A stretch of DNA of 64,000 nucleotides from Alphaproteobacteria bacterium (GCA_030752605.1 JASMDX010000049.1:57726-121725); one strand, 5' to 3'. Numbered from the stretch's first letter, positions 3,361 to 35,240 are shown. Numbers and translations are program-made. Notes: a model not told the origin generated them from the sequence alone.

Positions 3361-3722
3361 TCAGCACCAATGTTTGAAACGATCCTGTGCAGGTTGAACA
3401 CCGATACCGTGCTCATAACCCCATGTGTCCTGGCGCAAGCCGCCGTCCTTCAAGAAAGGCCACAGCTTGAAGAAGGCGCCCACATCGTGCTCGTTTCGAA
3501 AACCATGCCGCGTCCAGATGATCGGGATATCCTAGGCGGGGGCGGCGTCGAGCAATTTTATCATTGGCTCGATCACGCGCCGCAATTGGCTGATATCGAT
3601 GTTGCCTTTGCCATACCAGCCGTCGGGATAGAGAAAGTCATTCTGCGCGTCGATCACCACAACCGCCGTCCGGCCCGGCACCAGGTTCCAATGGGCGTTT
3701 CAAACGGATCGATACGCTCCAT
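3361..3722 (-). pseudogene. Disrupted isochorismatase-family (cysteine hydrolase) gene relic
   Basis: Reverse-strand translation gives (M)PGRTAVVVIDAQNDFLYPDGWYGKGNIDISQLRRVIEPMIKLLDAAPA-TAG-DIPIIWTRHGFRNEHDVGAFFKLWPFLKDGGL... It carries the classic isochorismatase N-terminal motif but has an in-frame TAG at 3534..3532. There is also an upstream ATG (3722) in a different frame. The ORF track has no intact ORF here. Confidence 0.5.
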
Positions 3723-3724
3723 GT

Positions 3725-4396
3725 TCAGGTATTCCGCCGCATGTGATCGAGCACCGCTTCAAGCGGTTCCACATCGCCGAACTTGGCGTCCATATCATAC
3801 AGATTCCATTCTACCGCGCCGGCGATGCGGTCGCCGATGCATTCGCGCACGATGATCGGACGGAAGCCATCCGCAATAGCGTCTTCCACCGTGGCGCGAA
3901 CACACGCCGAGGCCGTGGCGCCGGTGACGACCAACGTATCGACGCCACAGGCCGTGAGATAACTCTGCAGATTGGTGCCGCGAAAGGCGGAGGCCTGTTT
4001 CTTGACGATCAGCATTTCGTCGTCCCGACGTTCCAGGCGGGTATCGATTTCCACCGCTTCGGAGCCCGCGCATAGAACCTCGGCGGGGATTTTCCTGCCC
4101 CACAGGCCCATGTCGGAATGCTCACCCTCGATAATTTCATAGGCCGTGGTGGTGAAGATGATCGGCAGACCCTTGGCGCGGAATGCGGCAAGTACCTCGT
4201 TCAGGGCCGGGATCACCGTCTCCATTCCCTCGCAAGTGAAGGCATTGTCTTCCCTGGTCCAGGCATTGGCCATGTCGATCACGACCAGGGCCGCTTTCTT
4301 GCCCCATCCGACGCGCCGTTGGAAGCCGCGCTCCTGATAAAGAGCGCTGTCGTTTGTAAAAAGCTTATTGAGCGCCGCCTTGATTTCCGGATCCAT
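3725..4396 (-). CDS. Isochorismatase-family hydrolase (cysteine hydrolase; N-carbamoylsarcosine amidase-like)
   Basis: ALVVIDMANAW motif and catalytic-Cys region VVTGATASACVRAT. 223 aa. Confidence 0.85.
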   Translation of the reverse strand: MDPEIKAALNKLFTNDSALYQERGFQRRVGWGKKAALVVIDMANAWTREDNAFTCEGMETVIPALNEVLAAFRAKGLPIIFTTTAYEIIEGEHSDMGLWGRKIPAEVLCAGSEAVEIDTRLERRDDEMLIVKKQASAFRGTNLQSYLTACGVDTLVVTGATASACVRATVEDAIADGFRPIIVRECIGDRIAGAVEWNLYDMDAKFGDVEPLEAVLDHMRRNT

Positions 4397-4431
4397 TGCG
4401 TTTTCCTCCCCACCGATGCCATGTTCTTCGC

Positions 4432-4476
4432 TTAGCCTATCATACTCGCCTCTGGATGCGATAACAGGCTAAGCTA
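4432..4476. promoter_or_regulatory. Perfect 9-bp inverted repeat GCTTAGCCT-N27-AGGCTAAGC in divergent promoter region; candidate operator
   Basis: It lies in the 98-nt divergent intergenic region between the isochorismatase-family gene (minus strand) and the ACAD-fold oxidoreductase (plus strand). Each half is additionally flanked by TATCATA / TATGATA. Confidence 0.35.
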
Positions 4477-4494
4477 TGATACGCACAGGCGAGT

Positions 4495-5706
4495 TTGAAA
4501 CGAATGGGCGGGGAAATGACAGCAAGATCAGAGGCGGGTGAGATGCTGGCAGGTTCGGCATTGGAGAACGCCCGCGCGGTGGCACCGGTGCTGCGCGCCG
4601 AGGGGAGCAGGATAGAAGTCGCCCGCGCTCTTACGCCCGAGGCCCTGGCCACTATGCATGAAGGCCAGCTGTTTCGCCTTAGCCTGCCCCGCCGGCACGG
4701 GGGGGCAGAGCTGCCTCTGCCGCAATTGGCGCAAGCGGCCGAGATTATCGGCGGTGCCGATGCCTCCGCCGCCTGGTGCCTGGGCCAGGCCCTGGGCTGC
4801 GCCATGACCGCCGCCTTCATGGATGAGAAACCGGCGCGCGAAGTGTTCGATCCAGCGGACGCGGTACTGGCCTGGGGTGCGGGCATACAAGGCAAGCTCA
4901 CTGTGGCCGAAGGCGGTTATCTGGCATCCGGCACCTGGCGCTTTGCCTCCGGCAGTCACAACGCCACCTGGCTGGGCGGCCATTCAAAGGTTTTCGAGGC
5001 CGATGGCTCTCCCCGCCTGGATAAGAATGGAAAGCAGGCCAACCGCACCGCCCTGTTTCCCCGCGCCCAGGCCGAGATGGCGGACGACTGGCACGTCATG
5101 GGTCTGCGCGGCACCCGTAGCGAGGCCTACACTGTGGAAAATCTGTTCATCCCCGAGGGCCTGACCTCGGATCGCGAAACCGAAGCCGAGCGCCGGGTTG
5201 AGAGCACGTTGTTTCTTTTTCCCACCACCGCCGTCTATGCCTCCTTGTTTTCCTCCGTCGCACTGGGCATCGCGCAAAGCATGTTCGACGATCTAGTGGC
5301 CCTGGCGCGGAAAAAAACACCTCGCGGCGCCCGTAATGCCCTGCGCGACAGCCCGGTGTTCCAGACCAAGCTGGCGGAATTGGAAGCCCAGCTCGGCTCA
5401 CCGAGGGCCTACAAGCACGCAATCTTGAGCGAGATCTGGGAGACGGTAGATGCCACGGGTGAATTGAGCATGGACGACCGGGCCCGCATCCGTCTGTGCA
5501 CAACCTACGCCATCAACCAGGCTACGGCGGTATCCGAGCAGGTCTATCATCTGGCCGGTTCCACCGCAATTTTTGAAAACGAACCGTTCGAGCGGCGCTT
5601 CCGCGATATCCACGCGGTCTCGCAACAGGTCCAGGCCAGACATACCAACTACGAAACCGTAGGTCGCTACATGCTGGGTCATGAAGCCGACACGGTCTTT
5701 ATGTGA
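4495..5706 (+). CDS. Acyl-CoA-dehydrogenase-fold flavin-dependent oxidoreductase/monooxygenase (DszC/SfnB/HpaB-C2-like)
   Basis: The C-terminal region AGSTAIFENEPFERRFRDIHAVSQQ is typical of ACAD-fold type-2 monooxygenases. 403 aa; the start could be 4495, 4504 or 4516. Confidence 0.7.
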   Translation: MKRMGGEMTARSEAGEMLAGSALENARAVAPVLRAEGSRIEVARALTPEALATMHEGQLFRLSLPRRHGGAELPLPQLAQAAEIIGGADASAAWCLGQALGCAMTAAFMDEKPAREVFDPADAVLAWGAGIQGKLTVAEGGYLASGTWRFASGSHNATWLGGHSKVFEADGSPRLDKNGKQANRTALFPRAQAEMADDWHVMGLRGTRSEAYTVENLFIPEGLTSDRETEAERRVESTLFLFPTTAVYASLFSSVALGIAQSMFDDLVALARKKTPRGARNALRDSPVFQTKLAELEAQLGSPRAYKHAILSEIWETVDATGELSMDDRARIRLCTTYAINQATAVSEQVYHLAGSTAIFENEPFERRFRDIHAVSQQVQARHTNYETVGRYMLGHEADTVFM

Positions 5707-6443
5707 TGGGACAGCGTTCGACATACGGCTGGCGCGGCAAGCTCGGCCTGATCGTACCGACCACCAATACCGTGAACGAGGCGGAATGGAACATGGCCGC
5801 GCCCGACGGGGTCTCCATTCACGGCGCCCGTATCGTGCTGCACACCGATGTCACATCTGAGGCGGGCAAGGCGTCATCAAAGGAAGACCTGCGCCAGGCC
5901 GTTAACAGCCTGGCCCCCGCCGGCCTGGATGCCATCGCCTATGGCTGCACCGCCGGCTCGCTTATGACGCCGCGCCATGGATTGGCGGATTTCATGACGG
6001 AAGTCTGTGACCTACCCTGCGTCACCGCCGGAGCTGCAATCGTCGATGCACTGCTTTCGCTGGAGGTAACCAGCGTCTCCGTGGCCACGCCCTATGACAA
6101 GAGTTTGAACAACCATGAAGCCGAGTTCCTGAACAGCCAGGGCATAAGGGTGCGGGCTATAGAGGGCTTGGGCTTTGGCGCCAACGGCCCCCACGAATAT
6201 GCGCTGATGCATAAGGTACCCAGGCGAGACGTGCTTGAGCTGGCACGCAGGGTCGATGATCCCGGCGCCAATGGCCTGTTGATCAGCTGCACCGATCTGC
6301 CGACCTTCGGCATTATCGAGGAGCTGGAGCAGACCTTGGGCAAGGCGGTGGTGACGTCCAGTCAAGCCACCCTGTGGGCCGCCATGTCAGCCGCCGGATT
6401 GAACCCAGCCCTGCCTGGCCTGGGCCGCCTGCTTCGCCAATAA
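5703..6443 (+). CDS. Asp/Glu/hydantoin-racemase-superfamily protein (maleate isomerase / arylmalonate decarboxylase-like)
   Basis: GKLGLIVPTTNTVNE N-terminus and paired Cys-containing motifs (AYGCTAGS, LLISCTDLPT). It overlaps the upstream stop, indicating translational coupling. Confidence 0.7.
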   Translation: MMGQRSTYGWRGKLGLIVPTTNTVNEAEWNMAAPDGVSIHGARIVLHTDVTSEAGKASSKEDLRQAVNSLAPAGLDAIAYGCTAGSLMTPRHGLADFMTEVCDLPCVTAGAAIVDALLSLEVTSVSVATPYDKSLNNHEAEFLNSQGIRVRAIEGLGFGANGPHEYALMHKVPRRDVLELARRVDDPGANGLLISCTDLPTFGIIEELEQTLGKAVVTSSQATLWAAMSAAGLNPALPGLGRLLRQ

Positions 6444-6497
6444 CGGGTCGGTCAAAGTCGGTATCCAACTTGAGCTGGCCCGGACTCTCTGGCAGGG

Positions 6498-8585
6498 TTG
6501 AATTTTTCGATGGAGATATCTATGGTCCGCGATAGCCGTTACGATGTTTTGTTCGAGCCGGTGAAGATCGGTCCGGTAACCGCCCGTAACCGCTTCTACC
6601 AGGTGCCCCACTGCACGGGAATGGGGCGGCATTTCCCCACTTCGTCAGCGGTGATGCGGGGGATCAAGGCGGAAGGCGGCTGGGCCGTCATTTCGACCGA
6701 ACAATGCGATATTCATCCCACCGGCGATGTCCGCACACAAATCCGTCTGTGGGACGAAAAAGACATTCCGACCCATGCCCGGATGACCGAACTTGTACAC
6801 CACCACGGCAGCCTGGCCGCCATCGAGCTTTGTCACCCCGGGCATTATTCGACGAGCTATTATGCCCGCGAAACACCAATTGCGCCCAGCCCGATCCCTG
6901 TCCGCGCCCCCTTCCCTGGACAGGCCAGGGCCATGGACCGCCAGGACATAGCGGATTTTCGAAAATGGCACCGCCGCGCCGCCCTGCTCTCTCGACAGGC
7001 GGGCTTTGATATTGTCTACGTCTATGCCGGGCATGCGATCACCTTGTTGATGTTCTTTCTCTCGCGCCAGTACAACCAGCGCAGCGATGAATATGGCGGC
7101 AGCCTGGAAAACCGGGCCCGGCTATTCCGTGAATGCATCGAGGATGCCCACGACGCCGTCGGTGACATCTGCGCCGTCGCCGTTCGGCTAGCGGTCGATG
7201 AACTGCTTGGTGAACACGGCATGACCGCGGGTGTCGAAGGCCGAGAACTGGTTGAAATGCTAGCTGAACTGCCGGATTTGTGGGATGTGAATATCAGCGC
7301 CTGGCAGAACGATTCGGCGACCTCTCGTTTCGCGCCGGAAGGCTTCCAGGAAGAGTATATCGACTTCGTCAAATCCGTTACCACGAAGCCGGTCGTGGGT
7401 GTTGGCCGGTTCACCTCCCCCGACAGCATGGTATCGCAAATCAAACGCGGCGTGCTTGATTTTATCGGCGCCGCGCGGCCATCTATCGCCGATCCTTTCC
7501 TGCCCAAGAAAATCGAAGAAGGACGCCTGGACGATATTCGCGAATGCATCGGCTGTAACATCTGTGCCGCCTACAACAACGCATCAGTGCCGTTGCGCTG
7601 CACGCAAAACCCAACCCAGGGAGAGGAATGGCGCAAGGGCTGGCACCCGGAGCGGATACCGGCAAAAGATACCAATGACCGCGTCTTGATCGTGGGCGCT
7701 GGCCCGGCGGGGTTGGAGGCCGCGCGTGCGCTGGGACAAAGGGGTTATCAGGTATTTGTGGCCGAGGCGAAAACTGAAATTGGCGGCCGCGTGATCCGGG
7801 AGAGCCGCCTGCCGGGGTTGGCCGTCTGGTCGCGCGTCCTTGATTACCGAGCCACGCAATTGCGGCAAATGGCCAACGTCGAGATCTATCTCGACAGCCC
7901 CATGGGCACGGCGGATGTGCTCGAGACCGATTGCTCGCTGGTTGCCATCGCGACCGGGTCAACTTGGGCTAGGGACGGCATCGGCAGAACGCACCACCAG
8001 CCGGCACCTGGGGCCAAAGGCGCAAACATCTACACCCCCGACGACATCATGGATGGCGTTGAGATTGAGGGACCTGTCGCTATCTACGACGACGATCATT
8101 ACTACATGGGAAGCGTAATCGCGGAACTGCTGCGCCACAGGGACCTAGACGTCACGTTGATCACCCCATCTTCGGTGGTGTCTGAATTCAGCACCTACAC
8201 CCTGGAACAGGAACATATTCAAACGAGGCTTTTGGAGTGGGGGGTACGAATTGTTCAGCAGAAAGAATTGGCGGCGGTCGGCGCCGATGGTCTCGATTTA
8301 ACCTGCGTCTACACCGGCAAGGGGCGACACGTTAAAGCGGCTTCGATTGTTCTCGTGACCTCCAGGGTTCCCAATGACGAGCTGTACCTCTCATTGTCGC
8401 GGGACGAGGCCGCGCTCAAGCAATCAGGCATCAACAGGATAACCCGGATCGGCGATTGTCATGCCCCGTCAATCATTGCCGATGCGGTGTATGCGGGTCA
8501 TAAGTACGCCCGTGACCTGGGCGCGGTGGCGACCGAGGCGATACCGTTCAAACGCGAGTTGATCGAGTTGAGCCCAGATTATTGA
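6498..8585 (+). CDS. NADH:flavin oxidoreductase (OYE TIM barrel) fused to FAD/NAD(P)-binding domain; trimethylamine dehydrogenase / N-methylproline demethylase / 2,4-dienoyl-CoA reductase family
   Basis: OYE-like N-terminus (FEPVKIGPVTARNRFYQVPH), Cys cluster CIGCNICAAY (4Fe-4S) and ADP-binding VLIVGAGPAGLEAA. 695 aa; an alternative start is the ATG at 6522. Confidence 0.85.
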   Translation: MNFSMEISMVRDSRYDVLFEPVKIGPVTARNRFYQVPHCTGMGRHFPTSSAVMRGIKAEGGWAVISTEQCDIHPTGDVRTQIRLWDEKDIPTHARMTELVHHHGSLAAIELCHPGHYSTSYYARETPIAPSPIPVRAPFPGQARAMDRQDIADFRKWHRRAALLSRQAGFDIVYVYAGHAITLLMFFLSRQYNQRSDEYGGSLENRARLFRECIEDAHDAVGDICAVAVRLAVDELLGEHGMTAGVEGRELVEMLAELPDLWDVNISAWQNDSATSRFAPEGFQEEYIDFVKSVTTKPVVGVGRFTSPDSMVSQIKRGVLDFIGAARPSIADPFLPKKIEEGRLDDIRECIGCNICAAYNNASVPLRCTQNPTQGEEWRKGWHPERIPAKDTNDRVLIVGAGPAGLEAARALGQRGYQVFVAEAKTEIGGRVIRESRLPGLAVWSRVLDYRATQLRQMANVEIYLDSPMGTADVLETDCSLVAIATGSTWARDGIGRTHHQPAPGAKGANIYTPDDIMDGVEIEGPVAIYDDDHYYMGSVIAELLRHRDLDVTLITPSSVVSEFSTYTLEQEHIQTRLLEWGVRIVQQKELAAVGADGLDLTCVYTGKGRHVKAASIVLVTSRVPNDELYLSLSRDEAALKQSGINRITRIGDCHAPSIIADAVYAGHKYARDLGAVATEAIPFKRELIELSPDY

Positions 8586-8595
8586 CCGGTCAGCG

Positions 8596-9267
8596 CTAAA
8601 ACGGCTTGGTCGAACCAACGAAGGCGATCAGCAGTACCACGCACCACAAGGTCACAGCGGCGCTGCCGGCGTTGATACGGTTTTTCTTCATGCGTTTTTC
8701 ACCTTCGACCGCCTGTTCGCCGCCGGCGCGGACCATCTCGAATATGGGCTCCCACAGATCTGCGGCATGCAAAATCCAGGTGGCGCTCAGAACCATCAAG
8801 CCATACAGCGCTATTTTCAGGGCCAGCCAACCCTCCGGCATCAGATTGCCGGTAGCCAGGGCATAGACCCCCAGCGCCGTCATGGCGGCAGCGACAACAA
8901 ACCAAAGCACCCGATTGATGCGGTTGAGGGCCCATTCCTTGGGCGTGCCAATGGTGAATTTTTCCACCCATAACATGCCCAACCAGGCTAGGCTGAGAAC
9001 CCAGATCAAGACCAGCCAACCACCGGTGATTTGGCTGCCATGCTGCAAGGCAAGGGTAAAGCCGATAGGCAGGATCAACGGCGCGCAGGTGCGTGGCGCC
9101 ATGTCGACCTTGCGCCGAATCGCCCGCACCCGCAGGCGTTCGTCCAGGCTCAAATCGTCACGTGTCAGTTGGCTGTCACAAAAGAACACGCCCAGGTCCG
9201 AGCCCAGCCAATAGCCAAACAATAAGACATGAATGAAGATCAAGACGTCCTGAAAGTCAATATGCAT
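8596..9267 (-). CDS. Hypothetical polytopic membrane protein
   Basis: Several hydrophobic helices (LIFIHVLLFGYWLG, WLVLIWVLSLAWLGMLW, VTLWCVVLLIAFVG). No recognisable catalytic motif. Confidence 0.5.
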   Translation of the reverse strand: MHIDFQDVLIFIHVLLFGYWLGSDLGVFFCDSQLTRDDLSLDERLRVRAIRRKVDMAPRTCAPLILPIGFTLALQHGSQITGGWLVLIWVLSLAWLGMLWVEKFTIGTPKEWALNRINRVLWFVVAAAMTALGVYALATGNLMPEGWLALKIALYGLMVLSATWILHAADLWEPIFEMVRAGGEQAVEGEKRMKKNRINAGSAAVTLWCVVLLIAFVGSTKPF

Positions 9268-9328
9268 CGAAATGCTCCCTATGGATGAGCCAGCCTTTGC
9301 ACTTTTGATGTCAGCAGGTCAGCCAGCT

Positions 9329-9745
9329 TCAGGCGAACTTGACTCGTGCCGTGCCGGGCGTGATGACATCGCCGTTTTCATTCTTGATAAAGACATCCAT
9401 GTCCACTGTGCTTACGTCGGTATCGATCGCCGTAATGGTACCGCCAGAGGTCAGCGTCTCGCCAATGTATGAGGCGCGCCGGTTGGAATAATTGAACTGC
9501 ACCAACGTGCCATTGTCGCCCATCCAATTGACCACCACTTGATTTAGCCAATCGCCCTGCAGGGGCCCATCGATAACCACGCCGGGATGTTTTTCCACGT
9601 TCGTTGTATAGGGCTCGTCATAATGAATGCGGTGGGGATTCCATATCGCTGCGTTGTAGCAGAACAAGGAAACATTGGTCGCTGTATGCTGACGCTCGGG
9701 CAAGGCCTCGCCCACGGACAGCTTGGAAATATCAAGACTGCTCAT
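9329..9745 (-). CDS. MaoC-like hotdog-fold dehydratase subunit
   Basis: 138-aa hotdog-fold-like sequence. Its start overlaps the upstream gene's stop by 4 nt. Confidence 0.6.
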   Translation of the reverse strand: MSSLDISKLSVGEALPERQHTATNVSLFCYNAAIWNPHRIHYDEPYTTNVEKHPGVVIDGPLQGDWLNQVVVNWMGDNGTLVQFNYSNRRASYIGETLTSGGTITAIDTDVSTVDMDVFIKNENGDVITPGTARVKFA

Positions 9746-10197
9746 CGCATGATCCTCGTCTGTTTTTCTTCTAAAACCAACTCACCCGCCTCGGTCTCGA
9801 CACGCAGGTTATAGACGACGAAAATCAATGGCCCGGTGCTGCCCTGTTTTTCGATCAGATCGGCCAACGAACGAGTTGCCACCAGTTTGTCGCCAGGATG
9901 GATGGAGCGGTGAAAGGTCATCTCGGTACCGCCCGCCATGACCCGCTTCAATGGCAGATCGGGCAAGAATGAATCCTTGGGCAGGCCATCCGAACCCAGT
10001 TCAGCTAGAGGCGCGATAGGCCGCAAGGCGCCGAACAGGAACATCGCGGGCGCTTCGTCGCCATTCAGGAATTTTTCCTGTTGCTGCTCCGTAGAGATGG
10101 AATATTTGATGATGTCGCTGCGGTTGACTTCAACATGAACTGGTTCGCCCTCGCGCCCGATCCAGGATCTTGCCTCCGCGCTAATTAACTCACTCAC
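9742..10197 (-). CDS. Hotdog-fold protein (N-terminal half of a split MaoC/FAS1-like hydratase)
   Basis: 151 aa, translationally coupled to 9329-9745. The arrangement resembles two-subunit (R)-specific enoyl-CoA hydratases (HadAB-like). Confidence 0.55.
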   Translation of the reverse strand: MSELISAEARSWIGREGEPVHVEVNRSDIIKYSISTEQQQEKFLNGDEAPAMFLFGALRPIAPLAELGSDGLPKDSFLPDLPLKRVMAGGTEMTFHRSIHPGDKLVATRSLADLIEKQGSTGPLIFVVYNLRVETEAGELVLEEKQTRIMR

Positions 10198-10321: not shown

Positions 10322-11485
10322 TCAATCCAGTTGCAGGCTACGTTCCACGATCCGGGCAAAGAAACTGGCGCCATAGACCAGAGCCTCGTCATTGAAGTCA
10401 TAGCCCGGATTATGCACCGGCGTGCTATGCGCTCCATTGCCCACGTGGATATAACAACTGGGGACCTGCTCTGACATAAAGGCAAAATCCTCTGATCCAG
10501 TACCGGGCGGCAGATCCTTCCTGACCTGATCGGCACCGACCAGTTCATCGCAAACTTCCACCGCCAGTGCAGTCGGTTCCTTGGCGTTGAAAACGGGGTG
10601 AAAAATAACGCGGAAATCCATCTCGGCGCTGGCCTCATGACCCTCGGCGTTGTTCTTGACCAATAGCTCCATGCGGCCCTGGATGCGCTCCATCACGTCC
10701 ATGCTCATGGTCCGCACCGTGCCCGACAACCGCGCGGTCTGCGGGATCACGTTATAAGCATCCCCGGCATGCACCTGGGTAATGGACAATACGGCAGTGG
10801 TCGATGGCGGCAGATTACGGGCCACGATAGTTTGCAGGGCGCCAATCATTTCGCCCGCGATCATGACCGGATCAATGCCGTGATCGGGATGGGCCCCATG
10901 GGCGCCCCTGCCCTGGATATCGATATCGAAAAACGCCCCGGCCGCCGTCCGTAACCCCGAGGCGGCGCCATAATGGCCCACCGCCATGCCGGGCCGATTA
11001 TGCATGGCATAGAGAGTATCGCAGGGGAACTGTTCGAACAGGCCATCTGCGATCATCGCCTTGGCGCCGCCGATGCCTTCTTCCGCCGGTTGGAATATGA
11101 AGTTTACCTGGCCGCGAAAATTTTGGCTGCCGGCAAGATACTTGGCCGCCGCCAATAGCATCACCGTATGGCCGTCATGGCCGCAGGCATGCATAACACC
11201 ATCCTTGGTGGAACGATGGTCAAAATCATTCCGTTCCATAATCGGCAGGGCATCCATATCTGCGCGCAAGCCTACCGCCCTGGTCTCGTTACCGACCTTG
11301 AGGACGCCAACGACTCCGGTCTTGCCAATGCCTCGGGTCACCTGAATGCCGAATTCCTCCAGCTTGGCGGCCACGAATGCAGCCGTGCGCTCTTCCTCCA
11401 GACCAAGTTCGGGATGGGCATGAATATCACGCCGCCAGGCGACAAGCTCCTCCGCCATGGTGGCGATTTCTGCAACGATGGGCAT
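10322..11485 (-). CDS. M20D-family amidohydrolase (hippurate hydrolase / N-acyl-L-amino acid amidohydrolase-like)
   Basis: HACGHDGH metal-binding motif. The start is assigned to the ATG at 11485 (MPIVAEIATMAEEL), which is preceded by a GAGGAAAA RBS. The ORF-track start at 11599 is probably too far upstream. Confidence 0.85.
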   Translation of the reverse strand: MPIVAEIATMAEELVAWRRDIHAHPELGLEEERTAAFVAAKLEEFGIQVTRGIGKTGVVGVLKVGNETRAVGLRADMDALPIMERNDFDHRSTKDGVMHACGHDGHTVMLLAAAKYLAGSQNFRGQVNFIFQPAEEGIGGAKAMIADGLFEQFPCDTLYAMHNRPGMAVGHYGAASGLRTAAGAFFDIDIQGRGAHGAHPDHGIDPVMIAGEMIGALQTIVARNLPPSTTAVLSITQVHAGDAYNVIPQTARLSGTVRTMSMDVMERIQGRMELLVKNNAEGHEASAEMDFRVIFHPVFNAKEPTALAVEVCDELVGADQVRKDLPPGTGSEDFAFMSEQVPSCYIHVGNGAHSTPVHNPGYDFNDEALVYGASFFARIVERSLQLD

Positions 11486-11589
11486 GGATTTTCCTCTTGT
11501 CTCGACAATTAAGATACCGGCCCAGGATGGCATAGCTGTTGCCGACAAAGCAAAGCATAGCCGTGACGTGGACCTGAACTCCGGCAAAA

Positions 11590-12152
11590 TCCGGCCCATT
11601 CCTCTTGACCCTTATTTGGATGCCGATGAAATAATCCGGAACCAGGAAACACTCGAGCAAACCCTTGCCGCGATTACACGCTTCGTTCGAGAACGGTTGG
11701 CGCCTCACGAGGAGCAGGTCGACCGGGAAGGCCGCATATCCGAAGAAATTGTCAATGAAATGCGCGCCCTCGGCTTGGCGGGCCTGACGCTGCAAGAGGA
11801 ATTTGTCGGCGCTGGCCTGACGATCGAGGACAAGATTTCGGTCACAATGACCATGGCTAGACCTCGACCGCGTTTAACTGCCAGCTGGCGTCGAATGCAA
11901 TTCCAGGCCACGTCCTGGTTGCATCGGGCAGCGAGGAACAACGGCGCGCCTGGCTTGATAACCTGGCCACGGGCGAGGTCACAGCTTAGTTCGCCTTGAC
12001 GGAGCCTGATGCGGCCTCTGTAACCGCCTCCATCCAAACCATGGCGCGCCGGATGGGGATGCCTACGTGCTGAACGACACGAAGCGCTTCATCACCAATG
12101 CGCCCTATGCGGATGTCTTTCGGGTGCTGGCGCGGACCGATCCGGACGATTG
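11590..12152 (+). pseudogene. Acyl-CoA dehydrogenase gene fragment (N-terminal and middle domain only, frameshifted)
   Basis: ETLEQTLAAITRFVRERLAPHEEQVDREGRISEEIVNEMRALGLAGL is an ACAD N-terminal domain. A second frame continues with ...VASGSEEQRRAWLDNLATGEVTA (TAG). A third frame gives [14 protein letters not shown] and then ...[32 protein letters not shown] (TGA). No C-terminal catalytic domain follows before the next gene at 12184. Confidence 0.55.
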
Positions 12153-12183: not shown

Positions 12184-13320
12184 CTATCCTTCGCTCCGGA
12201 AGTCCCGAATGAAATCCGCGTCCGGTATCGCGCCCAGCCCAGCGCCCGTGGGCAAGGTCATATTTCCGTCCACAATGGCGGGCAGGCCACCGGTCAGCTG
12301 TTCGCGCAGTGGATTTGGATTGGCATCGATCTCCAGCATGCCGCCGCCGCCCGCCGCCGCCAGGCAGTGGCCCGAGGCCAATAGGCCGATGGCACCGGCG
12401 AGGAAATGCGGGCAATAACTTTGTCCGGCCGCGATAATGCGCCGGGCCAGCGGCAGGGTCTTGGTGAAACCGCCCCATTTGCACATATCCGGCTGTACTA
12501 CGGCCAATACCTTGGCCGCGATATAATGATCGAACTGCACATCGCCCAGAAGATTTTCGCCGGCCGCCAGCGGCGCGCCAGGAAGTGCCGCGATACGCCG
12601 CCAACTGTCCAAACCCTGATCGGCCGCGATGGGTTCCTCAATCCAGGTCAGATCGAATTGGGAATATTCGGGCCAGTTGCCGCAGGCGGTCTCCAGATCC
12701 CAGCTTTGATTGACATCGGTCATCAGGCGATACTGGCCGATCAACCGCCGTACGCCAGCAAGGGCGGCAAGATCGGTGTCCCTACCAAAGCCGATCTTGA
12801 CCTTGAAGGCGGTGTAACCTTCCTCTAACTTGCCTTCGACAATGCCTTCAAAGCCGCGCGGATTAAGGCCGGAGGCATAAACCGGAATGGTATCGCCTTG
12901 CCCTCCCAGCAGGCGCCAAAGCGGCTTACCCGCGCGCCGAGCCGCCAGATCCCAGAGCGCGATATCGACACCGGCGATGGCCTGGGCGAAAGCGCCCGGC
13001 TCGCCAGTTTGGATGGTCATGATGTGCGTGGCCTGGGTCATGGCCGCGAAGGCAGCGGCGGGCGTATCCCAGCTCTCCGCCAACGTGATGGGCGCCAGAT
13101 AATCCCGGATCAGATGGGCTCTGTTTTCGGCGCCATGCATGGGAAAATTTCCGAAAACCTCGCCCCAACCGACGGCGCCGTCGCCATCCTCGACCCGGAC
13201 CAGCAGGACGGCGCGTTTGGTCAAGGCGCCGAATGACGTCATCACCTGCGTGTCGATGGGAGCATGCAACAAGACCGGCTCGACCTTGACGATGTTCAGA
13301 TTAGGCAATTCTTTAGACAT
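12184..13320 (-). CDS. Enolase-superfamily enzyme (MR/MLE family), third paralogue
   Basis: FKVKIGFG (KxK motif), LMTDVNQSW, IEEPI and AAGENL. 378 aa. Confidence 0.85.
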   Translation of the reverse strand: MSKELPNLNIVKVEPVLLHAPIDTQVMTSFGALTKRAVLLVRVEDGDGAVGWGEVFGNFPMHGAENRAHLIRDYLAPITLAESWDTPAAAFAAMTQATHIMTIQTGEPGAFAQAIAGVDIALWDLAARRAGKPLWRLLGGQGDTIPVYASGLNPRGFEGIVEGKLEEGYTAFKVKIGFGRDTDLAALAGVRRLIGQYRLMTDVNQSWDLETACGNWPEYSQFDLTWIEEPIAADQGLDSWRRIAALPGAPLAAGENLLGDVQFDHYIAAKVLAVVQPDMCKWGGFTKTLPLARRIIAAGQSYCPHFLAGAIGLLASGHCLAAAGGGGMLEIDANPNPLREQLTGGLPAIVDGNMTLPTGAGLGAIPDADFIRDFRSEG

Positions 13321-13326
13321 ATTCGT

Positions 13327-14568
13327 TTACCCCGCCCCACCCCCGACGATGCCTTCGTCGTGCAATTCGCCAATTTCACCTTCGCTTAAGCTCAGGATAT
13401 CGGCCAAGATCTGGTCCGTATGCTCTCCCAAGGCCGGCGCCGGTTGGACCGCTTCGCGGGGCGCGGCGCCGAAATCAAGGGGAGAACCCGGTGTCAGATA
13501 ACTGCCGATGCCTGGCTGTTCCACCTCCTCGAATACCGGGTTCTGCGTGGAACAGCGCCAATCTTCCTCGAGAGCCTGCGCGACGCTCTGATATGGTCCC
13601 CACGAAACGCCTCCGGCGGTCAGAACCTTGGTCAAATCGCCGAAATCCTGGCCCGCACACCAAGGCTCCAGCAACGCAACTATCTCCGCCGTAGCTAAAA
13701 AGCGGTCGCCTTCCTGGCGCAGATTCAGGCCGCACCGAGCCTCGATCTCAGCCACGCCATCGGCAATGCCGGCAGTTTGCACCAAGGCCGGCCATTGCCG
13801 GCCCGTAATCGCGACAATCATCACCCGGCGGCCATCCCTAGTCACGAAATCCCGCCCAAAAGCGCCATAAAGCTCGTTGCCCGTGGCCGGGCGTTCGTCG
13901 CCGTTAATCTGAGTTTCGCCGATAAAGCCCAAGGTTCCCATGGTGGCAAAGGCCACGTCCGTCAGGGCCAGGGAAATGAACTGCCCCTCGCCCGTCAAAC
14001 GCCGATGCCGGTCGGCAGCCAGGATGCCATTCACCGCCGCCAGGCCCGTGGCTATATCCCAGGCCGGCATGACATGGTTGACCGGGGCCTCCGCGCCCGC
14101 CGGTCCCGTCAAATTGGGAAAGCCGGTAGCGGGATTGACCGTATAGTCGACCTCGGATGATCCATCGCGGTTGCCCTTGATGTTCAGCATGATCAGGTCG
14201 TCGCGCTGGGCCTTTAGGTTGTCATAGGACATCCAGCCGGAGGTAGGGAAATTGGTCAGAAAAAAGCCGTTATTCTCACTTTTATCCATGGGCGCGCAGA
14301 TTAGCTGGGTCAACAACTCGCGGCCTCTGGGATTGCGGATATCCACGGCGAAGGATTTCTTACCCTTGTTCAGGCCGGCCCAATAGAGGCTTTCACCAGT
14401 CCCGGTAACCGGCCAGCGGCGGTAGTCAAGACCACCGCCCAGAGGGTCGAAGCGGATTACCTCGGCGCCCATTTGCGCCAGGGTCATGCCCGCGCTGGGC
14501 GCCGCGATAAAGGCCGAACCTTCAATGACCCGAAGGCCGCGCAAAATACCGTTCATGATAAACTCCAC
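13327..14568 (-). CDS. Family III CoA-transferase (CaiB/BaiF)
   Basis: GLRVIEGSAFIAAPSAGMTLAQMGAEVI N-terminus and overall family-III architecture. The real start may be the ATG at 14556 (MNGILRGL). It lies 6 nt upstream of the enolase gene. Confidence 0.8.
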   Translation of the reverse strand: MEFIMNGILRGLRVIEGSAFIAAPSAGMTLAQMGAEVIRFDPLGGGLDYRRWPVTGTGESLYWAGLNKGKKSFAVDIRNPRGRELLTQLICAPMDKSENNGFFLTNFPTSGWMSYDNLKAQRDDLIMLNIKGNRDGSSEVDYTVNPATGFPNLTGPAGAEAPVNHVMPAWDIATGLAAVNGILAADRHRRLTGEGQFISLALTDVAFATMGTLGFIGETQINGDERPATGNELYGAFGRDFVTRDGRRVMIVAITGRQWPALVQTAGIADGVAEIEARCGLNLRQEGDRFLATAEIVALLEPWCAGQDFGDLTKVLTAGGVSWGPYQSVAQALEEDWRCSTQNPVFEEVEQPGIGSYLTPGSPLDFGAAPREAVQPAPALGEHTDQILADILSLSEGEIGELHDEGIVGGGAG

Positions 14569-17823: not shown

Positions 17824-19629
17824 ATGGCGTCCCGACCAGGTGCGGTCGTGAGCCTGCAGCGTCTGTTACTGTTGGCAGTAGTCCCAGCCCTGATGTTGGT
17901 TGGCGTACATATTTTATTGCAATTTTTGGCCGATTGGTTCGCACTTGATGGGCGCTTTATCGGCCCAGATGCCTATATGCGGGTGCTCCGCGTGGGGGAT
18001 CTTGCTTCGGGCGGGAGCTGGTATGAACCGGTAGCCGAACGTTCCAACGCACCCTATGGCGAAATTCTGCACTGGACCCGGCCACTAGACCTGTTGTTGT
18101 TGCTGGGTGGTATCCTGGGCGCGCCTTTACTGGGCTTCGATGGCGCCCTATTCGCCTGGGCGACTGTGTTCGGCCCGGTGCTTCATATTTTCACCCTCGT
18201 CGTGCTGCTGTGGGCCTGCCATCCGCTGTTGAATCAAAAAGGTCTGATGCTGCTAGGCCTGTTGTTCACAGTACAGTTTTTTGTCAGTTTTCAGTTTGCG
18301 GTGGGACGACCGGATCATCATGGGCTTAATATTCTATTTTTCATCTGGCAAATGGGCTTTGCCTTCCGTCTCTCGGCCGTAAAATGCCTGAAAAATTTAC
18401 CTCTTTTTGCAGCCCTGCCGGCCGCGCTCGCGCTCTGGATTAGTATTGAGGGCGCGGTGGGCACGGCCATGATCTTGACAGCGTTGTGCACCGCGTGGAT
18501 CATCCATGGCGGCGTCTATTTGCACCGGATGCGTTTGTTTCTCGTTAGCCTGAGTGTTGGTCTGATACTGGTATTGGTGGCGGAACGGCTGCCTAGTGAT
18601 CTGCTGACGGTAGAGTTCGATCGCCTATCGGTGGTGCATATCGCTTTGTTCGCGATATTGACCTTGGCTGCCCTGTGCATGCCCAGGATGGCGCGTCTGG
18701 GGAACCGTCTAAGCCTCGCGGTCGCCGCCGGCGTTCTGACCCTCACCGTCTTGGGGCTGTGGGTACCGGATTTCTTCTCTGGCCCCATGGCTGCCATGGA
18801 CCCACTCGTCTACGAGATTTGGTTCCGCAATAACGCCGAGGTCAGTCCGACGCTGGAACTCGACGATATGCGCCGAACCGGGCCAAAGGCCCTGGCCCAT
18901 CTCGGCCTGGTCATCTACGCGGTGCCGATACTGGTGGTTCTGTTCTTTCATTATCAAGGCGAACGCCGCCGCAATTATGCAATTTTGTCTGTTTTCCTCC
19001 TCGCTGGAACGGCCCTGGCCCTGCGCGAGGCACGCTGGATGGGCTATCCCCAAATCCTGTGCCTGCCCCCTTGCATTGTGTTGCTGCAGGTTCTGTTCGC
19101 ACGCAATGCCGGCCCCGGTCTGGGACGTACCGCGGTGCGCGTAGGCGCGGTTATCGTGCTTGCCACCGGGCCGTTGATCGGTGGCGGGCTGCTGCGCCAT
19201 GCCATGCCCGTACCGAAACAGGAGAAATCTTGTGGACTTTCAGAGATGGCGCTGTTTCTGGGGGTGAACTATGAACACCGCCCGCAAACATTATTAAACT
19301 TCATCTATTACGGGCCGGAATTGCTCTACCGGACACACCATTTCGTGATCGCCACGCCGTATCACCGCAACACCGACGGCATCGTTGATACCATAAAATT
19401 CCTTCGCTCCACCGACGAGTTAGAGGCAATATCCCTGATTGAGGAACGGCATATCGATCTGGTGTTGATCTGCCCCTCAGATCCGGAGGCTGATAATTAT
19501 CGCCAGACCGGCGATACCCCGACCTTATTCATGCGATTAGAATCTGATCAGCCACCACCCTGGCTCACGATGGTCCCGTTGCCCGCCGAACTGGGCCAGA
19601 AATTCAAATTGTTCCAGACCCAACGGTAG
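17824..19629 (+). CDS. Large polytopic membrane protein, putative GT-C-type glycosyltransferase
   Basis: About 10-12 hydrophobic helices over some 450 aa, followed by a soluble C-terminal domain of about 150 aa. The start is uncertain. The context (GtrA + FAD oxidoreductase) suggests lipid-linked glycan modification. Confidence 0.5.
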   Translation: MASRPGAVVSLQRLLLLAVVPALMLVGVHILLQFLADWFALDGRFIGPDAYMRVLRVGDLASGGSWYEPVAERSNAPYGEILHWTRPLDLLLLLGGILGAPLLGFDGALFAWATVFGPVLHIFTLVVLLWACHPLLNQKGLMLLGLLFTVQFFVSFQFAVGRPDHHGLNILFFIWQMGFAFRLSAVKCLKNLPLFAALPAALALWISIEGAVGTAMILTALCTAWIIHGGVYLHRMRLFLVSLSVGLILVLVAERLPSDLLTVEFDRLSVVHIALFAILTLAALCMPRMARLGNRLSLAVAAGVLTLTVLGLWVPDFFSGPMAAMDPLVYEIWFRNNAEVSPTLELDDMRRTGPKALAHLGLVIYAVPILVVLFFHYQGERRRNYAILSVFLLAGTALALREARWMGYPQILCLPPCIVLLQVLFARNAGPGLGRTAVRVGAVIVLATGPLIGGGLLRHAMPVPKQEKSCGLSEMALFLGVNYEHRPQTLLNFIYYGPELLYRTHHFVIATPYHRNTDGIVDTIKFLRSTDELEAISLIEERHIDLVLICPSDPEADNYRQTGDTPTLFMRLESDQPPPWLTMVPLPAELGQKFKLFQTQR

Positions 19630-23368: not shown

Positions 23369-24838
23369 ATGCCCACTCTAAAACCTAATCCAGATACCGT
23401 TGCGCACCAGAAAAGTCGGTGCGATGACAAGCATCCACAACAGGAAATTCCGTCACTGGACCGTCTGTTGCGCGCGCCTGAATTGCAACAATTGCAAGCA
23501 CGGGCGGGCCGTCAATTGGTGCTGGAGGAGGCCCGCGCCGAGCTGACCCAACTGCGCCAGCGGTTGAGCGGCACCAACGCCAATAGTACAGAAGAGACCA
23601 GCCTGGACCATCTGGCGGCCCAGATTGAGGCCCGCGTGGGGGCGGCTCTACGGATGTCCTTGCGGCCCGTATTCAATCTAACGGGCACCGTTCTGCATAC
23701 CAATCTGGGTCGCGCGCCGCTGGCGGAAGAGGCGATCGAAGCCATGGCAAAGGCAGCGCGTGGTGCCGTCAATGTGGAATTTGACCTCGCCAAAGGCCGG
23801 CGCGGCGACCGGGATGATCATGTGGAGGACTGGCTGTGCCGCCTGACCGGGGCAGAGGCCGCGACCGTGGTCAACAACAACGCAGCTGCCGTCCTGTTGC
23901 TGCTCAACACCCTGGCTAACCGCAGGGAGGTGCCTGTTTCACGCGGCGAATTGATCGAAATTGGCGGCGCCTTTCGAATTCCGAATATTATGCGCCGGGC
24001 GGGTTGCCGCCTGGTCGAAGTTGGCACCACGAACCGCACCCATTTGCGTGATTTCACCGAAGCCCTGACCTCGCGCACCGGCTGTTTGATGAAGGTTCAT
24101 ACCTCAAACTACATCGTGCAGGGCTTCACGGCGGAGGTCAGCGACGAAGATCTCGCCGGCCTGGCTCACGAAAATGACCTGCCCTATATGGTCGATTTAG
24201 GCGCCGGCGCGCTGATCGACATGGCGGCCCTGGGCCTGCCATACGAAACCACGGTCAGCGAAACCCTGGCAAAGGGTGCCGATTTGGTTAGCTTTTCCGG
24301 AGACAAGCTTTTGGGCGGGCCACAGGCCGGCCTAATCGCCGGACGCGCGGATTTGATCGCCAAGATCAAGAAAAACCCCATGAAACGGGCCCTTCGGGTG
24401 GATAAAGTAACCATGGCGGCCCTAGCCGCGACCCTGCGCCTGTATGCCCAACCTGACACCCTGCGGGCCAAACTGCCAACCTTGCGCTTATTGAGCCGGC
24501 CCGTGGCCGAAATCCAGGCCATGGCGGAGCGGATCGCGCCTGCGTTGCGGCTAACCTTGGGCGATGGCTTCCAAGTCACGATCACGCCGAGCAAGGGACA
24601 AATCGGCAGCGGTTCGTTGCCAGTTGAAAGCTTGCAAAGCGTGGCCCTGGCGTTGCGGCCCTGCACCACGAAGGGCAGCGGTGCTGCCTTGAAACGGTTG
24701 GCAGCGGCGTTTCGCACCCTGCCCCGACCGGTCCTGGGCCGGATTACAGATGACGCCTTGCATTTCGATCTTCGCTGCCTGGAGGATGGCGGGGACGAGG
24801 CGGCCTGGTTGGCGCAAATAGCGGATTTAAGGCCATGA
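23369..24838 (+). CDS. selA: L-seryl-tRNA(Sec) selenium transferase (selenocysteine synthase)
   Basis: SelA-specific length and the PLP-lysine motif FSGDKLLGGPQAG. It overlaps selB by 4 nt. Confidence 0.9.
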   Translation: MPTLKPNPDTVAHQKSRCDDKHPQQEIPSLDRLLRAPELQQLQARAGRQLVLEEARAELTQLRQRLSGTNANSTEETSLDHLAAQIEARVGAALRMSLRPVFNLTGTVLHTNLGRAPLAEEAIEAMAKAARGAVNVEFDLAKGRRGDRDDHVEDWLCRLTGAEAATVVNNNAAAVLLLLNTLANRREVPVSRGELIEIGGAFRIPNIMRRAGCRLVEVGTTNRTHLRDFTEALTSRTGCLMKVHTSNYIVQGFTAEVSDEDLAGLAHENDLPYMVDLGAGALIDMAALGLPYETTVSETLAKGADLVSFSGDKLLGGPQAGLIAGRADLIAKIKKNPMKRALRVDKVTMAALAATLRLYAQPDTLRAKLPTLRLLSRPVAEIQAMAERIAPALRLTLGDGFQVTITPSKGQIGSGSLPVESLQSVALALRPCTTKGSGAALKRLAAAFRTLPRPVLGRITDDALHFDLRCLEDGGDEAAWLAQIADLRP

Positions 24839-29793: not shown

Positions 29794-30278
29794 GTGCTTA
29801 AGCTACCTTTCATCCCCAACCGGCATTGTAGAGGGTCAGGGCGGAATGGTGAAGGGAGCATGGAGTGAGGTCTGCCGTCAAACCGGATCATCGTCCAATA
29901 TACAGCGGACCGCCACGGCGAGTGCCCGATCGGTATACGGCTTACTCAACAGGGCTCCCTCGAAATCGATACGCGATATTGTTTCATGACTCCGGGAACT
30001 GGAAACGGACTGCGGAGAAGCTAAGGAACCCGCGACACATGAATTATCACCAATTTTTTTGATCACGATGCAAAACAAGCTGGTTTAAATCATCGGAACC
30101 GAGCTATCCGGTGCCGTAGGGCCAAGGTCTTACCAACGGGCGAATGACGGCCCTATTGAAAAGAATTCGAGCATGCCGAAAGCGGCTGGATCATCATGCA
30201 GCCGTTTGTAGAAGCCCTGCAGCAAGGCGCAAGTGGCGGCCGCAATTGCGGCAATCCAAAATTAGCACGCCCCCCGCC

Positions 30279-31973: not shown

Positions 31974-32121
31974 CTTTTCCGCCTCCATCCCCAAAGCCTC
32001 TTTTATGCCCAAGACGGTATCGTGATTTGCCGCGTAAAACAATTACTACCGAAAGAAAACGCGCAATAACGATGCCCAATTGTTAAGCTGGGCGTAGAAA
32101 CAGAAACTCAGGATCGAGCAT

Positions 32122-33297: not shown

Positions 33298-33312
33298 AGA
33301 TTGGATTTGGGA

Positions 33313-34272: not shown

Positions 34273-34320
34273 GCCGCAGTGAATGGACCGTAACGAGCAT
34301 GGATTAGGAAAGGAAGCCCA

Positions 34321-35082: not shown

Positions 35083-35240
35083 GGCCGCTCAACCCGTCGG
35101 GATAATGACGATCATGAACATGGCGACGCCGGCGTCACGGTTCAGGTCAAATTAGCGCGGATTAATGACATGGGGCTCTTCATGGAGGCGCCAGTTCGCG
35201 TGCGCTATCGCCGGTTGGCCATTGCGCACGGCTGGAGGCA

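Follow-up and report, generated by a model that had tools for sequence, protein, structure and literature searches.

A flavin monooxygenase, an isomerase-like protein and a trimethylamine dehydrogenase-family flavoprotein at a variable locus of an alphaproteobacterium

Three consecutive genes in a 64,000-nt stretch of DNA from an Alphaproteobacteria bacterium (GCA_030752605.1 JASMDX010000049.1:57726-121725; hereafter the window) encode a putative flavin monooxygenase of the acyl-CoA dehydrogenase (ACAD) fold (gene 1), a two-cysteine protein of the Amdase family (gene 2) and a flavoprotein related to trimethylamine dehydrogenase (TMADH) and histamine dehydrogenase (HADH) (gene 3). A first-pass annotation had regarded the trio as a conserved catabolic module, which our analysis does not bear out: in 80 genome loci centred on a homologue of the ACAD-fold gene, and in 75 metagenome loci centred on a homologue of the isomerase-like gene 2, synteny of the trio extends no further than one close sister lineage. 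With moderate confidence we propose that the functional core consists of the ACAD-fold monooxygenase, the two-cysteine Amdase-family enzyme and a divergently transcribed amidohydrolase, and that the flavoprotein is a late neighbour with a separate history. The strongest argument for a joint function of genes 1 and 2 comes from the closest homologues of gene 2, where the monooxygenase at the same upstream position is replaced by enzymes of unrelated folds.

All three plus-strand open reading frames (ORFs) that had been claimed are present in the window, and the family names given to them were upheld by Pfam, NCBIfam and PDB sequence searches, from which all families reported here were assigned, NCBIfam scores being compared with the equivalog cut-offs. 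The trio and the sequences directly upstream are organized as follows:

3361..3681, minus strand: distal isochorismatase-family remnant that contains an in-frame TAG and has no C-terminal half
3725..4396, minus strand: intact isochorismatase-family amidohydrolase, divergent from the trio (PF00857, E=1.9e-33)
4397..4515: intergenic DNA between the divergent genes, containing an imperfect inverted repeat and a single weak match to a promoter
4516..5706, plus strand: ACAD-fold monooxygenase gene (gene 1), predicted to be of the group D type, reduced-flavin-dependent, an oxygenase component
5706..6443, plus strand: two-cysteine Amdase-family gene (gene 2), putative isomerase/racemase, its start overlapping the gene 1 stop
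6444..6521: leader before the flavoprotein gene, present or absent along with the flavoprotein and partly conserved in locus L094
6522..8585, plus strand: TMADH/HADH-family flavoprotein gene (gene 3), with an Old Yellow Enzyme (OYE) FMN domain, a 4Fe-4S motif and an ADP-binding domain

Distribution of the three genes

The window proteins were mapped onto each of the 80 loci that hold a gene 1 homologue. Outside the window, only a close sister lineage (86-94% identity) has the trio. It is complete in L001 and L014 (gene 1 88-92% identical) and in the sister-lineage loci L093, L094 and L176-L178, which also have both isochorismatase-family genes intact and a methylaspartate ammonia-lyase gene. 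L002 (86%) carries genes 1 and 2 on a contig that stops short of the flavoprotein position, and L003 (85%; also L081 and L082) carries genes 1 and 2 and the gene of a 223-aa membrane protein, without the flavoprotein. In eight loci with gene 1 at 72-77% identity (L004-L010, L031), gene 1 mostly adjoins the amidohydrolase gene, while gene 2, the flavoprotein, the membrane gene and the M20 amidohydrolase gene located further downstream in the window are all missing; here the interval between gene 1 and the genes of a MaoC-type hydratase is occupied by other sequence that varies in length from next to nothing to ~8 kb. Loci with gene 1 at 46-67% identity have no neighbour in common with the window.

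The stop codons of gene 2 and of the convergent membrane gene lie 2 nt apart in L003 and L081, and thus the 2.15 kb that comprise the flavoprotein gene and its 78-nt leader are cleanly present or absent. Homologues of the flavoprotein at 76-84% identity occur in four contexts without a gene in common: next to N-methylglutamate-synthase-like genes, GGT, an MttB-like protein and HyuA/HyuB (L085), insertion sequence elements and a luciferase-like gene (L086), an AsnC regulator (L087), or creatinase-like, arginase-family and aminotransferase genes (L175). None of the 75 isomerase-homologue loci has a flavoprotein homologue. Because the flavoprotein is present or absent and the cargo differs across relatives, and because the homologues of the flavoprotein have unrelated contexts, the interval between gene 1 and the MaoC genes (window 5707-9328) is a variable spot, of which the flavoprotein is one lineage-specific occupant. 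The nesting of the patterns tends to favour stepwise gain of the flavoprotein over loss. The membrane gene was found only where the isomerase-like gene is present, and the M20 gene only where the flavoprotein is present. A search with the DNA against plasmid records was uninformative, yielding only short matches (72-78%), all inside the flavoprotein gene.

Partners of the isomerase-like gene elsewhere

Contexts of gene 2 homologues were obtained first by exact-protein look-up (five contexts) and then from the 75 metagenome loci, all outside the window's lineage, and partners were counted in those 49 of the 75 that hold 8 kb or more. For the closest isomerase homologues, the adjoining upstream gene encodes a flavin monooxygenase, but its fold is not always the same, three unrelated ones being represented: the ACAD fold in the window, the FAD_binding_3 type in L083, L084 and L088, and a luciferase-like fold in L091 (2326-4346) and L092, where the isomerase is 87% identical to that of the window. 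It is this replacement of the monooxygenase fold at the same position that leads us to conclude that genes 1 and 2 probably work together.

The isomerase homologues of the marine cluster loci are 46-65% identical to the gene 2 product. The most frequent partner is an isochorismatase-family hydrolase (33 of the 49 loci), followed by a FAD_binding_3 monooxygenase and a TAXI-TRAP transporter (29 each), a second Amdase-family protein (28), an SDR (26), a family III CoA-transferase (14) and a protein of the HMG-CoA-lyase subfamily (8; score 318 bits, cut-off 246). A flavoprotein homologue and an ACAD-fold monooxygenase were each found in 0 of the 49. The recurrent cluster (L083, L084, L088-L090, L096-L170) has one or two FAD_binding_3 monooxygenases and no ring-cleavage dioxygenase. 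It is also annotated on plasmid p2 of the cultured Thioclava sp. 'Guangxiensis' (L171 = CP155823.1, 677827-688019), where none of its proteins reaches an NCBIfam equivalog cut-off. Literature searches found no paper describing the isomerase cluster, and it is apparently undescribed.

Gene starts, overlap and intergenic DNA

The choice of starts rests on database orthologues and ribosome-binding sites. The preferred start of gene 1 is ATG 4516, preceded by GGGGAA and giving a product of 396 aa (orthologue P0001). For gene 2 we prefer ATG 5706 or GTG 5703, giving 245-246 aa (orthologue P0121, 245 aa). The overlap between the stop of gene 1 and the start of gene 2, described previously, is real and is contained in ATGTGATG (...TTT ATG TGA TGG...): the stop codon TGA 5704-5706 shares 4 nt with GTG 5703, or 1 nt with ATG 5706. 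Gene 2 is taken to be translationally coupled to gene 1 in the window; in the sister lineage, 10 nt separate the two. A 54-nt gap before gene 3 and a 695-aa product had been reported; the large flavoprotein is there, but these values apply only if TTG 6498 is used, and the better start, ATG 6522 with GGAG 6 nt upstream, gives a gap of 78 nt and a product of 687 aa (orthologue P0241).

The dyad that had been put forward as an operator upstream of the trio exists as an imperfect inverted repeat (arms 4425-4443/4461-4479, 19 nt, 79% complementary), but is not conserved in the orthologous intergenic regions, which have in common with the window merely a short CTAGGCT-like core, and we reject the operator on this ground. 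Scans for promoters and terminators gave no excess over the shuffled expectation.

The ACAD-fold monooxygenase

The product of gene 1 matches PF08028 (type-2 C-terminal ACAD domain) and weakly PF00441, with the ACAD N-terminal and middle domains below threshold. Its similarity to oxygenase components spans the full length: the HsaA model is aligned over positions 1-359 of 383 (138 bits, cut-off 450) and the model of the C2 oxygenase of p-hydroxyphenylacetate hydroxylase over positions 2-381 of 384 (119 bits, cut-off 650). The best solved relative in the PDB search is Rv3094c (E=1.6e-43), with HsaA and C2 at ~1e-25. Full-length likeness to oxygenase components in a protein that does not have the canonical acyl-CoA dehydrogenase domain set is what characterizes the group D enzymes, and the gene 1 product is accordingly predicted to be an ACAD-fold flavin monooxygenase of the group D type, acting as the oxygenase component. 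The ORFs scanned across the 64 kb include no flavin reductase; a few small ORFs fell outside the scan, and such reductases are often encoded elsewhere.

The neighbours of gene 1 homologues of 46-67% identity are heterogeneous (rhodanese, TauD-like, methyltransferase, glutamine-synthetase-like, efflux pumps) and include nothing of the window's, which makes these contexts uninformative as to the function of gene 1. We observed that a rhodanese-like gene directly precedes ACAD-fold homologues of 59-62% identity (L015, L016, L018, L019, L039 and others), and that some loci of distant ACAD-fold homologues also have TauD-like or cysteine-synthase-like genes. This hints that a part of the ACAD-fold monooxygenase family acts in organosulfur metabolism.

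The two-cysteine Amdase-family protein

Gene 2 encodes a member of PF17645 (Amdase; E=3.3e-29) of the Asp/Glu racemase superfamily. Among 14 family members compared, down to 47% identity, Cys81, Cys195, Asn21 and Tyr130 are invariant (14/14). Cys81 and Cys195 align with the catalytic Cys pair of the maleate isomerases 2XEC and 4FQ7 (Cys76/Cys194 in the Nocardia enzyme), and Asn21 and Tyr130 with their conserved Asn and Tyr, which we take to bind the substrate carboxylates. All catalytic residues that define a maleate isomerase are therefore present, but similarity at the level of orthology was not found: single-sequence E-values against the characterised maleate isomerases are only ~1e-14. With the family profile, 2XEC and 4FQ7 are the best PDB matches (104 bits), arylmalonate decarboxylase being close behind (95 bits).

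Arylmalonate decarboxylase has a single catalytic cysteine, Cys188, and a glycine replaces the first cysteine. Of the functions that had been considered for gene 2, all within the racemase superfamily, which is correct, the decarboxylase is disfavoured, both catalytic cysteines being present and invariant and the score against NF052327 being below the cut-off (101 bits, cut-off 225). EutA was also rejected: the score against TIGR02990 is 123.8 bits (cut-off 318), the eutBC and doeA genes are absent, and the M20 protein of the window scores 305 bits on DoeB2, against 550. As the invariant catalytic Cys pair aligns with that of the maleate isomerases, the gene 2 product is best regarded as a putative two-thiol isomerase or racemase, and we set the decarboxylase reading aside.

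The TMADH-family flavoprotein

The product of gene 3 is confidently related to solved structures of the TMADH/HADH family (HADH of Nocardioides simplex, 3K30: 52% identity, 757 bits, E=1.6e-226; HADH of Rhizobium sp. 4-9, 6DE6: 51%, 754 bits, E=7.8e-226; 6L6J: 50%, 704 bits; TMADH, 1DJN: 42%, 547 bits). The alignments to all four run end to end and are collinear, in agreement with the three-domain architecture of the family; the domains detected are PF00724 (residues 18-345), NAD_binding_8 and an OYE-like second α/β domain. The 2,4-dienoyl-CoA reductase FadH (1PS9) gives 141 bits over residues 15-477 only, i.e. over the N-terminal part, as compared with 757 bits for HADH, and was rejected. Clustering with the dienoyl-CoA reductases, which had been named beforehand as the outcome that would speak against the earlier proposal, did not occur; by the scores the protein falls in the TMADH/HADH clade. 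The score against the mycofactocin-associated FadH/OYE oxidoreductase 2 model TIGR03997 (367.8 bits) is below the cut-off of 793. Cys39 aligns with the cysteine that carries 6-S-cysteinyl-FMN (Cys30 in TMADH, Cys35 in HADH), and the 4Fe-4S motif CIGCNIC...C (CxxCxxC...C) and the GxGxxG motif of the ADP-binding domain are present; a covalent FMN, a 4Fe-4S cluster and a bound ADP are thereby predicted.

Eight residues have been proposed to form the histamine site of the Nocardioides enzyme, namely Gln65, Ile74, Phe77, Glu79, Asn115, Tyr181, Trp267 and Asp358, and most substitutions of the Asp358 equivalent abolished activity in mutagenesis (PMC10180351). Only two of the eight, Gln65 and Trp267, are kept in the gene 3 product. 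Ile74 is replaced by Val, Asn115 by Tyr, Tyr181 by Ile and Asp358 by Asn; Phe77 and Glu79 are lost or replaced (Gln/gap), in a loop shorter by 2 residues. The position of Gly357 is taken by Tyr. We surveyed this pocket in the 120 closest database homologues (P0241-P0360, 61-99% identity): the loop that is 2 residues shorter than in the HADHs occurs in 99 of them, positions 115, 357 and 358 vary widely (the combinations at these three pocket positions include G-N, S-D, G-D, Y-S, Y-N and others), and only the eight closest sequences have the Ala-Tyr-Asn motif of the window, with Phe for Tyr in one of them.

Because six of the eight histamine-site residues differ, the gene 3 product appears to be a member of the TMADH/HADH family with a non-histamine pocket, as judged by the sole sequence test available, and not a HADH. 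That two acidic residues are gone and two tyrosines have been added suggests, as an inference, that the substrate is an amine without a second positive charge, perhaps N-alkylated; an N-alkyl-amine substrate is possible for the flavoprotein alone. The survey further suggests that the short-loop clade is a large group of amine dehydrogenases with diversified substrates.

The divergent isochorismatase-family genes

A divergent pair of isochorismatase-family hydrolases had been reported upstream of the trio. Both genes lie in tandem on the minus strand and are oriented away from the trio, but only the proximal one (3725-4396) is intact; the distal one is a remnant that matches, at 75% identity, the N-terminal 100 aa of the 222-aa product of the distal gene in L176-L178, where it is intact. 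In most relatives of the same lineage the intact hydrolase gene adjoins the ACAD-fold gene. Among solved structures, its product is closest to the N-carbamoylsarcosine amidohydrolase of Arthrobacter (1NBA; E=1.4e-71, 52% identity over 216 aa), and Asp51, Lys144 and Cys177 align with the Asp-Lys-Cys triad of this enzyme. Neither a hydantoinase nor a creatinine deaminase gene, as expected in a creatinine or N-methylhydantoin context, lies beside the hydrolase gene, the only HyuA/HyuB-type genes being 47 kb off and caprolactamase-like.

Proposed reactions and alternative interpretations

We infer the substrates, the order of steps and the link to the flavoprotein from the families, catalytic residues, gene overlap and presence/absence patterns observed above. 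In the core that we prefer, the monooxygenase would use free reduced flavin to oxygenate, and thereby open or activate, a small nitrogen-containing ring or an unsaturated amide, the amidohydrolase, of the cysteine-hydrolase type, would strip off the amide or carbamoyl nitrogen, and the two-thiol enzyme would isomerise (cis-trans) or racemise the resulting unsaturated or α-substituted acid. The acid product could then enter the adjacent mesaconyl-CoA-type genes (CoA-transferase, MaoC hydratase). In its logic the scheme parallels the maleamate branch (NicF/NicE, Ami/Iso), from which it is nevertheless distinct. The flavoprotein would function separately, as a stand-alone amine dehydrogenase that oxidises a C-N bond to give an aldehyde and ammonia or an alkylamine.

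Several observations weigh against this assignment of the core. Identity between the amidohydrolase and the isochorismatases found in other isomerase clusters is just 33-38%, and N-carbamoylsarcosine amidase is a much closer relative than the maleamate amidohydrolases 4L07 and 3OT4 (scores of only 1e-31 and 1e-26). Adjacency of the ACAD-fold and amidohydrolase genes was seen in one lineage, monooxygenase homologues of less than 67% identity having no isochorismatase nearby, and could be explained by shared ancestry. Many of the metagenome loci of the isomerase are redundant contigs of the same populations. The gene 2 product is ~25% identical to both maleate isomerases and arylmalonate decarboxylases, with nearly equal scores, and its distant relatives (31-37%) are found in HyuA-HyuB-racemase-M20 operons (Haladaptatus and Mesorhizobium plasmids), contexts that point instead to a possible role of gene 2 as a racemase acting on cyclic amides. 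Finally, in the window and the sister lineage the flavoprotein gene is co-oriented with genes 1 and 2 and close to them, and co-transcription or a functional link is possible.

The last point, together with the tight spacing, the stop/start overlap and the 78-nt gap, would be expected if the trio and the amidohydrolase formed a single operon for an N-alkylated amino acid, an aryl acid or an amine-bearing heterocycle, in which the flavoprotein would deaminate or dealkylate the substrate first, followed by the monooxygenase, the hydrolase and the isomerase, in a manner resembling Pno, Hsh, Ami and Iso. The arrangement is abundant in the sister lineage (the flavoprotein orthologue occurs in 109 blocks of the sequence collection), the M20 gene and the flavoprotein are present or absent jointly, and a comparable combination of enzymes exists in the nicotine cluster of strain S33 (PMC5500553). 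We nonetheless consider a single operon quite unlikely: the trio occurs in one close lineage only, the flavoprotein is absent from L003, L081 and 75 of the 75 isomerase loci, its homologues of 76-84% have unrelated neighbours, and no aldehyde dehydrogenase, electron transfer flavoprotein (ETF), ring-cleavage dioxygenase or deformylase was found among the scanned ORFs of the window. The close similarity of the hydrolase to the Arthrobacter enzyme, with its conserved triad, would be accounted for by a hydantoin or N-carbamoyl-amino-acid route of the creatinine type, in which the hydrolase would indeed be an amidase for N-carbamoylsarcosine or an N-carbamoyl amino acid, with the Amdase-family protein racemising a 5-substituted hydantoin-like ring or an N-carbamoyl amino acid, and the flavoprotein demethylating or deaminating a sarcosine-like N-methyl amine. 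Such a route would agree with the HyuA-HyuB-racemase-M20 operons of the 31-37% isomerase relatives, with the flavoprotein homologues near HyuA/HyuB and N-methylglutamate-synthase-like genes (L085) or near creatinase-like and arginase-family genes (L175), with the replacement of two acidic histamine-site residues by Gln and Asn and the addition of Tyr117 and Tyr359, and with the presence of HyuA/HyuB-type genes in the window (55083-58999). It appears unlikely, however, as these genes are 47 kb distant and match best, below the cut-off, as caprolactamase-like, N-carbamoylsarcosine is achiral, no gene is common to the contexts of the flavoprotein homologues, and no monooxygenase would be needed, yet a flavin monooxygenase is the recurrent partner of the isomerase-like gene.

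Histamine catabolism, with the flavoprotein as a HADH, the ACAD-fold enzyme hydroxylating imidazole-4-acetate, and the hydrolase and the M20 protein releasing aspartate, is suggested by the two best solved relatives of gene 3 and by the conserved equivalents of Gln65, Trp267 and the flavinylation cysteine. We regard it as highly improbable, given the six differing binding residues, among them Asp358, replaced by Asn at a position nearly intolerant of substitution (PMC10180351), the shortened Phe77-Glu79 loop, the equal distance of the flavoprotein from 6L6J (50%), the many pocket variants among the 120 closest homologues and the failure to find an aldehyde dehydrogenase gene nearby. One may finally ask whether the genes are functionally related at all, or whether a flexible spot has collected unrelated cargo, the pairing of monooxygenase and isomerase being accidental. 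The spot does hold from almost nothing to ~8 kb of differing sequence in L004-L010, the distal isochorismatase is decaying, and distant monooxygenase homologues occur in heterogeneous contexts; the overlap of genes 1 and 2, the recurrence of flavin monooxygenases of three fold classes directly upstream of the closest isomerase homologues, and the isochorismatase in 33 of the 49 isomerase loci make a purely accidental assembly very unlikely.

Other genes in the window

Downstream of the trio, the following genes were identified:

8596..9267, minus strand: membrane protein of 223 aa, without a match to any family, in which about five segments are hydrophobic
9329..10197, minus strand: MaoC/hot-dog (R)-hydratase subunit pair, the conserved right-hand border of the variable spot
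10322..11599, minus strand: M20 amidohydrolase, TIGR01891 subfamily (above cut-off), the start probably lying further downstream (orthologue 387 aa)
12184..14568, minus strand: MR/MLE enolase-superfamily gene and family III CoA-transferase gene, the latter close to 2-methylfumaryl-CoA isomerase

The CoA-transferase (13327-14568) scores 583 bits against TIGR04253 (2-methylfumaryl-CoA isomerase; cut-off 725), and in sister loci a methylaspartate ammonia-lyase gene lies beside the enolase-superfamily and CoA-transferase genes. Taken together, the CoA-transferase, the MaoC pair and the methylaspartate ammonia-lyase of the sister loci point to mesaconyl-CoA-type chemistry beside the variable spot. 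Neither an ETF nor an aldehyde dehydrogenase was found among the ORFs scanned across the 64 kb.

Further away, a 601-aa protein (17824-19629, plus strand) has about 12 hydrophobic segments and no Pfam match; its gene, which is responsible for a strong negative AT skew at 18-20 kb, is conserved beside an amine-oxidase-like gene in related loci. The selenocysteine synthase SelA and the elongation factor SelB are encoded in tandem (23369-26784, plus strand), implying selenoprotein synthesis in this alphaproteobacterial metagenome-assembled genome. Three AMP-binding acyl-CoA synthetase genes (27338-36893) lie beside three adjacent genes of a 2-oxoacid:ferredoxin oxidoreductase (36862-39454, minus strand: POR gamma, TPP-binding, POR_N). 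The HyuA/HyuB-type pair (55083-58999, minus strand), of the ATP-dependent hydantoinase/oxoprolinase type, scores 750 and 460 bits on caprolactamase models (cut-off 1000) and adjoins the gene of a DAO-family flavoprotein (53007-54311).

Implications

Each protein of the trio is a new, uncharacterised member of a known family. For annotation this means that the flavoprotein should not be named histamine dehydrogenase, trimethylamine dehydrogenase or dienoyl-CoA reductase, that gene 2 should not be named arylmalonate decarboxylase, and that the trio should not be propagated as a pathway module. The short-loop TMADH-family clade, with its variable pockets, is a pool of uncharacterised amine dehydrogenases.

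The isomerase cluster recurs in many marine metagenomes and on at least one plasmid of a cultured Thioclava, and its substrate could be a significant dissolved organic nitrogen compound. We speculate, and regard as conceivable though doubtful, that the isomerase gene marks a widespread undescribed marine pathway for an abundant nitrogen-containing carboxylate, with dioxygenase-free oxidative ring opening. Such a pathway would comprise TAXI-TRAP uptake, a flavin monooxygenase, an isochorismatase-type amidohydrolase, two Amdase-family enzymes, an SDR, and a CoA-transferase and lyase of the citramalate/HMG type; the monooxygenase would be swapped between lineages (ACAD-fold here, luciferase-like in L091), and the flavoprotein, as a new specificity class of the TMADH family, would add a step from an amine precursor, e.g. 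an N-methyl or secondary amine.

Comparison with known systems

Gene 1 resembles the group D monooxygenases (HsaA, C2, DszC, Rv3094c) in the ACAD fold and in full-length similarity in the profile and PDB searches, but differs in that it scores far under every equivalog cut-off and that no flavin reductase gene was found nearby. The gene 3 product shares with the HADHs 3K30 and 6DE6 the full-length collinearity, the OYE FMN domain, the 4Fe-4S motif, the ADP domain and the flavinylation cysteine, in contrast to the binding site, of which two of eight residues are kept and the loop is 2 residues shorter. It has the three-domain architecture and the cofactor motifs of TMADH (1DJN), but the aromatic bowl Tyr60/Trp264/Trp355 of the latter corresponds to Gln/Trp/Asn, only the Trp264 position being kept. 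In 6L6J, which we take to be the nicotine-pathway Pno (the deposit calls it 'Oxidored_FMN domain-containing protein', and no confirming paper was found), Ala occupies the flavinylation position, where gene 3, the HADHs and TMADH have Cys.

The amidohydrolase resembles N-carbamoylsarcosine amidohydrolase (1NBA) in its 52% identity over 216 residues and its conserved triad. The classical N-carbamoylsarcosine pathway, however, involves an N-methylhydantoinase or creatinine deaminase, not adjacent here, and makes no use of a flavin monooxygenase, which is the conserved partner in the present case. In the Rut pathway a reduced-flavin monooxygenase, RutA, is paired with an isochorismatase-family amidohydrolase, RutB, which acts on the ring-opened ureido product. 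The pairing of monooxygenase and hydrolase in the window is alike in logic only: RutA is luciferase-like as opposed to ACAD-fold, no other rut genes are present, and the hydrolase scores 44.6 bits on the RutB model (cut-off 378).

The homarine hom operon was rejected as a counterpart, its enzyme set being different (FAD-binding HomA, HomB, a peptidase and an aldehyde dehydrogenase; PMC13236597). The hybrid nicotine cluster of A. tumefaciens S33 combines a HADH-like Pno, a flavin hydroxylase, an isochorismatase-family amidase and a maleate isomerase (PMC5500553); membership in this pathway was likewise rejected, since, going by the gene list of the same paper, the dioxygenase, the deformylase and the molybdenum hydroxylase are missing and the hydrolase and isomerase are no orthologues. 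Pfam scans of the window ORFs detected neither the 2,5-dihydroxypyridine dioxygenase nor the N-formylmaleamate deformylase family. Although the hydrolase is nearer to N-carbamoylsarcosine amidase and the isomerase is remote from the characterised enzymes, the maleamate branch (NicF/NicE; Ami/Iso) has in common with the window an isochorismatase-family Cys amidohydrolase and a two-Cys Amdase-family isomerase, encoded beside a flavin monooxygenase.

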